From the NCBI GenBank assembly GCA_963729715.1, contig CAVSPA010000005.1, positions 512,001-576,000 of the forward strand: a stretch of 64,000 nt of DNA. The letters are read 5' to 3'. This document shows, one piece after another, positions 23,036 to 62,270 of this stretch (positions within the stretch are counted from its first letter, which is position 1; every line of letters starts with the position of its first letter). The DNA is from an uncultured delta proteobacterium. Lineage in GTDB: Bacteria; Desulfobacterota; Syntrophia; Syntrophales; UBA2185. The notes beneath the pieces were generated by a model. The model did no database searches. It saw only the letters and a program-made list of their open reading frames with translations, and was not told where the DNA came from. The translations under genes were made by a program, and so were the position numbers.

Positions 23036-23063
23036 ATAATATACGGCTCTTCTCTTTTGTCAG
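23036..23063 (-). promoter_or_regulatory. Candidate sigma70 promoter for the activase gene, -35 altered by the IS200 insertion
   Basis: Empty site reads T|TGACA-16nt-TATTAT. With the IS present the -35 reads CTGACA. Confidence 0.45.
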
Positions 23064-23691
23064 TAAACTACCACCGACCTTGTCGGTGGCTTTCTTGAAG
23101 GACGACAACTCCTGACAATGTCATTCGCTGTCGTCCCTCCATAACCCAAGCTGCTCTTCTCGCATCTGATCTTCTACTTGCTCTTTAACATATTTCTGAA
23201 TGGTGGCGCTGTCGATTCCCACAGTGCTCACAAAATAGCCCCCGGCCCATATATGCAGCCCCCAATACTTTTTGCACAATTCAGGAAAATCCCTACGCAG
23301 ATACTCTGCACTTTTTCCTTTGAGGATCTTCATTACATGGGCCGGAGAATATTTCGGAGGAACTGAAAGATACATATGCACGTGATCTGAACATATCGCT
23401 CCTTCTATAATTGTGACGTCAAGCCAGTTGCATAACTCCACCAACAGCTCCTTTAATCTTGGCTTGATCTCTTTCACCAGCACCTGATAGCGGTATTTCG
23501 GAACCCAAACGAAGTGATACTCACATCGGTAAATTGCATGAGATGATTTGTTGTATTCTTCCATACCCTTGCCTCCTATGGATACGTTACAACAAATCCT
23601 ATCTGCTTATCAACATTGTTGATGCGCTAAAGGTGTGGGGCCTCCGCCCCCACGCCCCACCACTGACTATGTCAGTGGTTTTGAGAGATAA
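23063..23691 (-). mobile_element. IS200/IS605-family insertion sequence, tnpA only, 629 bp
   Basis: LE hairpin CCACTGAC-ATA-GTCAGTGG follows a TTTAT target. RE hairpin CCACCGAC-AAG-GTCGGTGG is followed by TAGTTTAC. Ends defined by comparison with the 61784-61975 element. No target duplication. Confidence 0.9.
23121..23564 (-). CDS. tnpA: Y1 HUH transposase
   Basis: YHFVWVPKYR, DHVH (HUH), LKGKS, WAGGYFVSTVG, KYVKEQ (catalytic YxxxQ); AGGAGG RBS. Confidence 0.96.
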   Translation of the reverse strand: MEEYNKSSHAIYRCEYHFVWVPKYRYQVLVKEIKPRLKELLVELCNWLDVTIIEGAICSDHVHMYLSVPPKYSPAHVMKILKGKSAEYLRRDFPELCKKYWGLHIWAGGYFVSTVGIDSATIQKYVKEQVEDQMREEQLGLWRDDSE

Positions 23692-61153: not shown

Positions 61154-61663
61154 TCACCAGCTATTGACATGAATCCTTGCGGTGTTAAATCGATTCGCCG
61201 GAGGTTTGTGCTCGTCGGGATACCCGATAGGAATAACTGCGAGCGGTATCACATGCTCGGGCAGCTTCAGGAGCTTCTGCATGCCTTTAACGCGTTCAGT
61301 TATCGGATGGACGCCAAGCCATACCGCGCCTAATCCTTTTGCCTGAACCGCAATCAGCATATTTTCTGCTGCTGCCGAACAATCCTGCGCCCAGAAATCC
61401 TTATACACTTCCAATTTCAGGTCCCCGCAAATTACAATAGCCACGGAGGCCGTCTTTACGGATTGAGCATATGGATGGACCTTGGGAATTTCATCGAGGA
61501 TCTTTCGGTCATTGACAATAACGAAATGCCAGGGCTGTTCATTGCCTGCAGACGGGGCGCTCATAGCGGCTGCCAATATCTCTTGCACCGCGCTCTCCGA
61601 CACCGGCTCCTTTGTGTATTTGCGAATGCTTCTTCTCGAAAGAATCGCTTCCATTGCATTCAT
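61154..61663 (-). CDS. Nitroreductase family protein
   Basis: RRSIRKY, APSAGNEQPWHF, DCSAAAENML, GLGAVWLG, IPIGYP. True start is ATG 61663 (GGAGG RBS), not the ORF-track extension. Confidence 0.93.
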   Translation of the reverse strand: MNAMEAILSRRSIRKYTKEPVSESAVQEILAAAMSAPSAGNEQPWHFVIVNDRKILDEIPKVHPYAQSVKTASVAIVICGDLKLEVYKDFWAQDCSAAAENMLIAVQAKGLGAVWLGVHPITERVKGMQKLLKLPEHVIPLAVIPIGYPDEHKPPANRFNTARIHVNSW

Positions 61664-61695
61664 AATGGTCACCTCCGTTATCTCTCTACTGCAGC

Positions 61696-62270
61696 CTACC
61701 GGCCTTTGCAATCCGACTTGCCCTTGCCATAGCTCCCTGTCTCTTCGTTCTTGAGGATGGACCCTTCGAAGGTAAGAACGTAAGTAAACTACCACCGACC
61801 TTGTCGGTGGCCTTCAAAATGCGGCAAGCCTACGGACAATGTCCTTCGCCTTGCCTGATAAGGATTGAAACGGCTATTCTAAAATATTGTTCACCAACAT
61901 TGTTGGTTCACTTAAGGTGTGGGGCCTCCGCCCCCACACCCCACCACTGACAATGTCAGTGGTTTTGACAGATAAATAAAATCGTTTCCCCTGCAGTTAT
62001 AAAACCACTTTTCCATAGGTTTCTTTTTCTCTTTCAGGTAGGTGCGTTTGGTCTTATCGCTCTTGTCTCCCTCCCTTTCATCCGTTCGGTAGTGGCGGCC
62101 CTTCTTAGAACGTATCTTTTCTTTCGACGTCGGCTTGCCGCATTCGAGGAGCGCTTTCGTCTTGGAGTCTCCGACACTTACCCTTCGCCGCATCTGAAGG
62201 CGCCGCTCTCAATACTTCCGGATAATATGAAGCATGCCGCGACTAATACTGAAATAATTATTTTTGTCAT
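61696..62270 (-). pseudogene. DUF2845-like exported protein gene broken by a frameshift (~62181) and a 192-bp insertion
   Basis: Signal peptide, AFRCGEG / VSVGDSK..LLECGKP...EKWFYNC..NDFI|YVLTFEG...GKG. The frame rejoins exactly when the element is removed. Confidence 0.85.
61784..61975 (-). mobile_element. Non-autonomous IS200/IS605 derivative (PATE/MITE-like), 192 bp
   Basis: Same LE and RE hairpins and TTTAT target as the 23063-23691 element; no transposase; no target duplication. Confidence 0.92.

Follow-up and report, generated by a model that had tools for sequence, protein, structure and literature searches.

The repeat and the interrupted gene

The window analysed here measures 64,000 nucleotides (nt) and corresponds to positions 512,001 to 576,000 of contig CAVSPA010000005.1 of an uncultured delta proteobacterium. 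Close to its right end, a gene for a DUF2845 protein is split by a repeat of 192 bp, which is in all likelihood a non-autonomous, protein-free palindrome-associated transposable element (PATE) of an IS200-group insertion sequence (IS), most likely moved by the TnpA transposase of one of the IS200 families of the same genome, called family C below. By inspection of the sequence, the repeat was found at 61784-61975, where the original prediction had placed it. The orientation adopted follows the transposase gene that the related IS carries, and corresponds to the minus strand of the window. Contig names such as C4 refer to the genome assembly searched (G000; 19 contigs, 3.76 Mb). The locus features the following elements.

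61696..62270, minus strand: DUF2845 gene with a signal-peptide-like N-terminus (MTKII...), split by the PATE after ...NDF
61784..61975, minus strand: 192-bp PATE; the active top strand is the window minus strand and runs from the left end (LE, 61975) to the right end (RE, 61784)
61976..61980, minus strand: TTTAT, target and left cleavage site, composed of TTAT and, at -5, a conserved T; found in 15 of 17 copies; the pentamer is found in the empty site of loci L002, L007 and L010
61783, minus strand: +1 T directly 3' of the RE, treated as flank

The fragment 61976-62193 (minus strand) matches the Pfam family DUF2845 (PF11006, E 9.3e-09). The orthologous locus was sought in 41 related genomes, and was found in same-genus genomes with contiguous flanks. 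The insertion is precise and not accompanied by target duplication, because the flanks abut without the element in all 8 same-genus DUF2845 loci examined. The uninterrupted site reads ...GATTTTAT|TTACGTT... in same-genus genomes, and AAAACGATTTTAT|TTACGTTCTTAC in L002, which is exactly the window sequence minus 61784-61975. Intact open reading frames (ORFs) reside in L003 and L010; they read ...NDFIYVLTFEG... and end in ...EKWYYNCGENDFIYVLTFEG...GKSDCKGR.

The gene carries a second lesion, missed by the original prediction: 4 nt are deleted at ~62178/62179 in comparison to 7 of 7 congeners, and the frameshift parts the signal-peptide-like N-terminus from the rest of the DUF2845 protein. Because of the deletion and the PATE insertion, the gene is a pseudogene twice over. 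L002, found in another genome, has a frameshift of its own in a poly-A run of the DUF2845 gene.

Congeners also lack the PATE at the sites orthologous to C4:635227 and C3:92329, and thus all 3 orthologous sites that could be examined are empty. The flanks of the C10 copy are themselves repeated, so no orthologous site can be assigned to it. The sequence next to this copy (L031:900-1220, corresponding to C10:106649-106967) is found also at C8:18997, C9:1 and C4:22366, as in congeners, and is another mobile or repeated element.

Copies, targets and boundaries

Blastn searches of the whole assembly identified 14 matches extending over 192 of 192 nt, window copy included, with identities of 93.75-100%. 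The copies have been sorted by comparison into a young cluster, made by 5 identical copies at different loci and 4 more, the window copy among them, which are 1-3 nt off the consensus, and an older subfamily of 4 copies with 8-13 differences; 1 further copy is intermediate. The window copy departs from the consensus at one position, 61864. The A found there (plus strand) is private to the window copy; the family consensus G is found in contigs of all 4 public runs, and is read also in a public-run contig bridging into the DUF2845 flank. A right-end PATE fragment of 58 nt, 88% identical, was identified by blastn at C3:18974-19031; it ends with GTTTAC, followed by A, and is probably an old shared remnant, an equivalent fragment being found in the congener locus L030.

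Flanks were compared in 17 copies, the 14 short ones and the 3 copies of the related IS. The 5' flank is TTTAT in 15, TTCAT in 1 and TTTAC in 1, and the preceding base varies. TTTAT is found next to 3/3 IS copies and 12/14 short copies, and target duplications were found in 0/17. Together with the empty sites of the congeners, these flanks bear out the original prediction, according to which insertion took place exactly 3' of TTTAT without duplication. The prediction had also proposed to count the copies genome-wide and to check their targets, and 14 full-length copies, 12 of them at TTTAT, are the outcome.

The empty site alone permits a rightward slide of the element boundaries by 0-3 nt. 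Comparison of the copies leaves a slide of 0 or 1 nt, as T follows the element in 17/17; genome-wide, T follows 26% of the 11,523 TTTAT sites. The 0- and 1-nt boundaries cannot be separated by sequence alone. The +1 T is counted as flank because the base is C, G or A in 4 of 13 older copies residing in relatives, all with an intact GTTTAC, and one family A IS copy also lacks the T. An element of 193 bp, with T as last base, is disfavoured by the same non-T copies in which GTTTAC is intact.

The related IS and its transposase

The IS to which the repeat is related is represented in the window by one copy.

23063..23691, minus strand: autonomous IS200-group element of 629 bp, family C, with TTTAT and T as its flanks; the genome has 3 identical copies
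23121..23564, minus strand: tnpA, encoding a Y1 HUH transposase of 147 aa, whose H61-V-H63 and Y125 coincide with motifs of TnpA proteins of known structure

TnpA matches the Pfam family Y1_Tnp (PF01797, E 2.1e-39) and the NCBIfam IS200/IS605 equivalog NF033573 (E 5.9e-44; 149 bits, the cut-off being 55). Matches to PDB entries include 2ec2 (E 2.1e-30), IS608 2a6m (E 4.6e-24) and 2xm3 (E 1.9e-23), and conservation of both the HVH motif and the helix with the tyrosine is seen in these alignments, that with 2ec2 included. TnpA is <46% identical to any of 3082 plasmid-borne matches, and therefore no named IS is close; no match to the PATE was found in the plasmid collection. The 629-bp IS is present in 3 copies, 100% identical by blastn. 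Its TnpA has intact HUH and Tyr motifs. Given the identical copies, the family C IS is probably active. It conforms to IS200/IS605 elements in having a Y1 HUH TnpA and subterminal hairpins, no terminal inverted repeats, insertion 3' of TTTAT without duplication, and, judging from sequence covariation, cleavage sites specified by guides.

The PATE is collinear with this IS. The left-end positions 1-83, which include three hairpins, are ~91% identical (91.4% over 81 nt upstream of tnpA by blastn). A 5' untranslated region (5'-UTR) segment at ~55% follows, then the ribosome-binding-site region AGGCAAGG, and directly after it the last ~70 nt of the IS, starting just before the tnpA stop codon. The right ends are 80.9% identical over 68 alignment columns (~66 nt). 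From collinearity and the missing frame, the PATE therefore corresponds to an almost exact loss of the tnpA reading frame, not of that of the resident copy. The longest ORFs within the element are fragments of 30-49 aa, without family match. The repeat had been described at the outset as a transposase-less IS200 derivative which is not a fresh deletion of the resident IS; the first part agrees with the match of the ends to family C and the loss of the tnpA frame, the second with ends that are 91% and 81% identical, and a 5'-UTR that is ~55% identical. Recognition of the PATE ends by the family C TnpA is plausible at this degree of similarity.

A TnpA-only family C element had been proposed as helper, in the absence of TnpB or IscB. 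The family is retained, not the specific copy located 38 kb away, as any of the three identical copies may serve. As for TnpB, the Pfam models PF07282 and PF01385 gave 0 matches genome-wide, and were positive in 8 of 14 control genomes. The IscB part of the claim gains nothing from the search, as the profile PF14239 gave 0 matches in the genome, but 0 in the control genomes too.

Hairpins of the PATE

On the top strand the element starts with TTATCTGTCAAAA-CCACTGAC-ATT-GTCAGTGG and ends with AAGG-CCACCGAC-AAG-GTCGGTGG-TAGTTTAC. The subterminal hairpins are located at element positions 14-32 and 166-184. IPL and IPR denote the left and right imperfect palindromes.

61963..61966, minus strand: left guide AAAA, directly preceding the LE hairpin on its 5' side; TTAT is the site expected from the IS608 scheme
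61944..61962, minus strand: LE subterminal hairpin (IPL), CCACTGAC-ATT-GTCAGTGG, from single-stranded DNA folding; the IS hairpin has an identical stem
61916..61940, minus strand: second LE hairpin, G/C-rich, from fold and alignment; near-invariant in sequence across the IS clade
61893..61907, minus strand: third LE hairpin, ACCAAC-AAT-GTTGGT
61823..61855, minus strand: long imperfect hairpin 5' of the right guide, from folding; the IS counterpart is found around the tnpA stop codon (23100-23136)
61811..61814, minus strand: right guide AAGG (AAAG in the IS); both forms predict TTAC
61792..61810, minus strand: RE subterminal hairpin (IPR), CCACCGAC-AAG-GTCGGTGG, identical to the IS hairpin
61784..61787, minus strand: right cleavage site TTAC, the last 4 bases of the element, at nt 5-8 after the hairpin foot

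Folding of the top strand yields 5 hairpins (-46.5 kcal/mol, z -7.2), and is weaker for the bottom strand (-38.9 kcal/mol, z -5.3). In an alignment of 25 left ends, 96.2% of the cells are paired in the three LE helices, 7 pairs feature two-sided changes, and 0/500 shuffles were as good. All cells are paired (100%) in the IPL, where 2 pairs show compensatory changes. In the third LE hairpin 99.3% of the cells are paired and 3 pairs show compensatory changes; one pair varies as T-A (11), C-G (8) and G-C (5). The right hairpin is conserved in 27 ends. The second LE hairpin, which corresponds to 23632-23656 in the IS and to columns 40-64 of the alignment, is rich in G-runs on the top strand. It is near-invariant among IS relatives whose TnpA identity is only 62-94% and whose hosts belong to several phyla, suggesting that it may have a sequence-specific role beyond pairing. 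Together with the conservation of all three LE hairpins at 91% in the PATE, versus ~55% for the adjoining 5'-UTR, it may, in a rather doubtful reading, mark a second protein-binding or structural site needed for transposition.

A chain of stable hairpins may also denote a repeat serving the host, similar to repetitive extragenic palindromes (REPs) or to their paired forms (REPINs), and kept by selection as terminator, mRNA stabiliser or regulatory RNA. Most copies are indeed intergenic, as only ~2-4 of 14 restore an ORF of at least 89 aa across the junction, and the right hairpin with its T-rich tail fits the terminator consensus. The terminator match is however one to the consensus only, the window copy destroys a conserved gene, and the sites occupied by the PATE are lineage-specific, not conserved. 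In a search of Rfam at permissive thresholds (61600-62150), only 2 sub-threshold matches to CRISPR repeats were obtained, with E 0.38 and 0.72. Moreover, the associated transposase belongs to a multi-copy IS having its own ends, not to a single-copy REP-associated tyrosine transposase (RAYT) flanked by REPs. A host-serving repeat is thus extremely unlikely.

Guides and cleavage sites

Pairing at the fourth position of guide and site is a feature of IS608, and agrees with the published recognition scheme. In PMC3201880, recognition of the IS608 sites, TTAC and TCAA, is ascribed to the tetranucleotide located 5' of each hairpin, which is AAAG for the left end. Site bases 1 and 2 form crosswise pairs with guide bases 1 and 2 (C-3/G-35, T-4/A-34); in the same description A-2 has no other partner, and guide position 3 is not used in pairing (PMC3201880). 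When the scheme is applied to the present elements, AAAA predicts TTAT, and both AAAG (IS) and AAGG (PATE) predict TTAC, in all cases as observed.

Covariation of guides and sites was analyzed in relatives of TnpA from species-representative genomes. They amount to 38 loci, residing in metagenome-assembled genomes (MAGs) labelled Syntrophaceae, Smithellaceae, Syntrophales and others. The set included 27 near-full-length loci and the 2 window elements; 11 partial or distant loci were left out (L066, L067, L069-L072, L074-L078). Ends were unusable in 1 locus with no recognisable left hairpin, and in 2 with no recognisable right hairpin. In L051, from a public MAG, the first ~80 nt of the contig are adapter-like sequences joined to the IS left end, probably an assembly artefact.

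The predicted tetranucleotide was found 11-13 nt 5' of the hairpin foot in 24/28 left ends, which are related, and thus represent fewer independent events than rows. Left guides are of six types, AAAA, AAAT, TAAT, TAAA, TAAG and AAAC, the own sites of which are TTAT, TTAA, TAAA, TAAT, TAAC and TTAG, respectively. When guides were shuffled among loci, the mean was 7.0 and the maximum 14, and none of 5000 trials reached 24. At the right ends, the predicted site was found at nt 5-8 after the hairpin foot in 25/27, and guide position 4 covaries with site position 4 in 27/27 (G-C 21, A-T 6). The combination of AAGG with TTAC, which marks the PATE, is found also in the IS of five relatives. The guides AAAA and AAAG/AAGG, from which the original prediction had derived TTAT and TTAC, are thus in accordance both with the scheme, as outlined in PMC3201880, and with natural covariation.

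Alternative guides, CAAA at the left and GAAG or GAAA at the right end, would apply if the hairpins included one more pair, A-T or G-T, as they do in the fold of minimum energy. They were rejected, as they predict TGAT and TCAC or TCAT, and these sites are not observed.

T is the base after the right cleavage site in 27/27 right ends (25 related IS copies, the window IS and the PATE), despite the differences among the left targets (TTAT, TTAA, TAAA, TAAT, TAAC, TTAG). The same base was found in 7/7 family D copies and in all 9 copies of a second PATE family described at the end. The first base of the elements of the family C clade is also T. The near-obligatory +1 T and the extended conserved left end are left unexplained by the IS608 guide rule. 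The +1 T may reflect either a direct contact with TnpA, which would recognise the six-base target T-TTAT^T, or a cut made one base past the paired tetranucleotide. It may be tentatively proposed, as a rather doubtful extension, that this IS200 clade reads more than the IS608 rule accounts for, and that the PATE marks the true minimal cis-requirements.

Hairpins and guides bear also on the source of the transposase. The genome hosts 16 Y1_Tnp matches, sorted into five IS200 families (A 2, B 2, C 3, D 7, E 2), and the PATE might have been moved by an enzyme of family A, B, D or E, or by one encoded outside the assembly. PATE copies persist in genomes in which no cognate tnpA was detected, and AAGG, the right guide, is not that of the resident IS but that of IS relatives in other genomes. 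Yet the stems of both subterminal hairpins are identical to those of family C, and shared only with it; families A, B, D and E feature different hairpin stems, and no similarity to the PATE was detected in any of them by blastn. Moreover, the changed guide base is at a position which is unpaired in IS608 in the scheme of PMC3201880. A transposase other than that of family C is therefore very unlikely to have moved the PATE.

One copy of a family D IS200 element, at C3:26306-26350, lacks the first 35 nt and is joined there to an unrelated sequence; the latter begins with CTATTTATCTATC, similar to the target and the left tip of family C.

Distribution and strand orientation

Cognate TnpA proteins (E at most 1e-40) were found in 3 of 22 genomes of the bacterial family: the present one, with three copies, G017 and G011. 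PATE copies of near-full length (at least 184 of 192 nt aligned) were identified in 7 other genomes, 1-2 in each, and degraded pieces in further ones. The genome hosting 14 PATE copies is thus also the genome hosting three cognate tnpA copies, and the single-contig congener G005 has neither PATE nor cognate TnpA. Most genomes of the family are fragmented drafts, in which absence is weak evidence. An independently propagating family, as originally predicted, is supported by the division into two subfamilies, by the 5 identical copies, and by the related copies that 7 other genomes of the bacterial family host.

Identical copies, empty congener sites and three identical IS copies point to a recent, lineage-specific spread of the PATE. 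The copies could be viewed, in contrast, as fossils of a past spread, their likeness to the resident IS reflecting shared ancestry only. Relatives holding 1-2 copies with no detectable cognate tnpA fit this explanation, as does the older subfamily, 8-13 nt apart, and no empty-site or circle molecules were found in contigs of 4 public runs, although contigs cannot show circles. It is less easily reconciled with five identical copies at different loci and four more only 1-3 nt off, with the emptiness of all 3 examinable orthologous sites in congeners, and with the presence of three identical IS copies with intact tnpA. A fossil family is considered improbable.

Of the 17 family C copies, 14 have their top strand on the strand richer in G, as measured over +/-50 kb (p 0.006, one-sided binomial); among the copies with |skew| of at least 0.01, the count is 13 of 14. 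The same orientation was observed in 16 of 22 other IS200-type elements of the genome. IS200/IS605 transposition has a bias for the lagging-strand template, as reported in the sections of PMC5027513 on this subject. The G-rich-strand bias matches the latter, is expected if transposition involves a single strand, and provides indirect support to a strand-specific mode with a single-strand circle.

Parts of the sequence are found in 20 public runs; these consist of contigs, with at most 0.44 of the sampled words, and no RNA run is listed among them. Among the public-run contigs (4 runs), none covers 61706-61773, and one X2 contig bridges the LE junction (61783-62026) with 1 difference. Loose contig ends at 61782/61783 and 61977-61981 show only that other copies have other flanks.

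Proposed mechanism

For the PATE we infer mobilisation by the TnpA of the IS, a circular intermediate, and the exact phosphodiester bond that would be cut. The element has kept the whole left end, with the guide AAAA, the subterminal hairpin and two further conserved hairpins; of the right end it has kept the long and the subterminal hairpins, the guide AAGG between them, and the tail, which ends in TTAC. The pathway would be the single-strand 'peel and paste' of the IS608 type. A dimeric Y1 transposase, supplied by any of the three 629-bp IS copies, would bind both top-strand hairpins, and the guides would pair with the cleavage sites, TTAT in the left flank and TTAC at the right tip. The top strand would then leave as a circle with the junction ...GTTTAC|TTATCTG..., and the donor be precisely resealed. 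Reinsertion of the circle would take place, with no target duplication, 3' of a TTTAT (TTTAT^T by preference) that is single-stranded in the template of the lagging strand. In the window the element landed in the DUF2845 gene, which it inactivated.

Several observations weigh against a PATE moved in this way by the family C TnpA. The PATE ends are not identical to those of the helper, as the right end is 81% identical, AAGG replaces AAAG, and the LE loop reads ATT in place of ATA. The guide rule fails for 4/28 left and 2/27 right ends, and the left boundary of single-copy relatives is not known independently of the rule. Seven related genomes, all drafts of 20-610 contigs, carry PATE copies with no detectable cognate tnpA; these copies may be fossils, or tnpA may be unassembled in the drafts, or another enzyme may move them. 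The GC skew is weak, 3/17 values lie within 0.002 of zero and the C10 copy is clearly opposed; moreover, copies in one replichore are not independent in the orientation test. Lastly, no joint across the element was found in 4 public runs, which hold contigs only, and contigs cannot show circles.

Comparison with known elements

PATEs were named in 2011 in Haloquadratum walsbyi, where they include homogeneous families such as HqIRS, as described by Dyall-Smith et al. (PMC3119063). In the relevant part of PMC4810608 they are placed in the IS605 superfamily, and PATE-like minimal elements are described in ISGst families of Geobacillus stearothermophilus in that of Meers et al. 2023 (PMC10055086). 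The window repeat resembles PATEs in being too short for a transposase, in lacking terminal inverted repeats and target duplication, and in having near-terminal palindromes related to IS200/IS605, a short 5' targeting oligonucleotide, multiple copies and lineage-specific insertions.

Haloquadratum PATEs, in the description of PMC3119063, likewise have no transposase, no terminal inverted repeats, near-terminal palindromes, a target of 4-5 nt and no duplication; they form families with >90% identity, and originate by loss of the core of a full element. They differ in being archaeal and mainly kin to IS1341/TnpB-type elements, intact IS200 transposases being nearly absent (as stated in PMC3119063), whereas the present PATE has a bacterial host, a TnpA-only IS200 parent and three intact helpers, with no TnpB found in the genome.

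The Geobacillus elements are also protein-free, share LE and RE with autonomous and TnpB-only elements, carry guide-like motifs by which target and cleavage site are defined, and would, as predicted, all depend on one TnpA for mobilisation in trans, according to the portion of PMC10055086 that deals with them. There they occur beside TnpB/IscB, often with an omega-RNA (PMC10055086, same portion); for the present PATE, in contrast, no TnpB partner was found in the genome and no RNA is recognisable by Rfam. The repeat does not resemble the TnpB/IscB-associated omega-RNA class, with 0 matches for TnpB and none in Rfam; for IscB, the controls were silent as well.

IS608, from Helicobacter pylori, and ISDra2, the mechanistic models for IS200/IS605 elements, have in common with the present elements the Y1 HUH TnpA, subterminal hairpins, 4-nt guides, absence of duplication and lagging-strand bias, to the extent covered in PMC3201880 and PMC5027513. 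In contrast to family C, they carry tnpB too. The distance between site and hairpin is 19 nt in IS608 and 13 here at the left end, and 10 versus 8 nt at the right; IS608 sites are TTAC and TCAA, those of the present elements TTAT and TTAC. The present clade further differs in the near-obligatory T that follows the cut and in two extra conserved LE hairpins.

REPs, bacterial interspersed mosaic elements (BIMEs) and REPINs are short hairpin repeats thought, in the accounts considered, to be moved in trans by a Y1 transposase, the RAYT or TnpA-REP. In the same accounts, REPs are high-copy units of 20-40 nt, often paired as REPINs, and the transposase is a domesticated, single-copy one flanked by REPs. 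Unlike REPs, the present PATE measures 192 bp, has distinct left and right IS ends and a multi-copy IS as helper; the latter is the 629-bp element, with distinct LE and RE and 3 identical copies. Classical MITEs (miniature transposable elements with inverted repeats) are also short, non-autonomous, multi-copy and trans-mobilised, but have inverted repeats at their termini and usually duplicate the target site. The PATE starts with TTATCTG... and ends with ...GTTTAC, which are not inverted repeats, and no duplication was found.

Current understanding of these elements is unchanged. The class has been known since 2011 (as presented in PMC3119063). The data add a bacterial, TnpA-only and TnpB-free PATE burst with the helper present, and a natural covariation series for the IS608 guide rule, the six left guide types of which suggest which guide changes retarget. 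In terms of annotation they explain 14 repeats, 9 more with the second family, and one inactivated gene, and show why draft assemblies of the group break at PATE sites.

A second PATE family

A second family of PATEs, ~157 bp long, has 9 copies with identity of at least 98.7%, none of which is in the window. They are located at C4:229999, C4:292522, C4:450630, C7:113539, C7:277718, C5:272573, C5:182210, C1:15450 and C3:57548. Their ends match those of IS200 family A (C4:217843, C6:266818). All 9 are preceded by TTCAT, and feature a T after ...TTTAC. The guides GATA and AATG predict TCAT and TTAC, respectively, under the IS608 rule.

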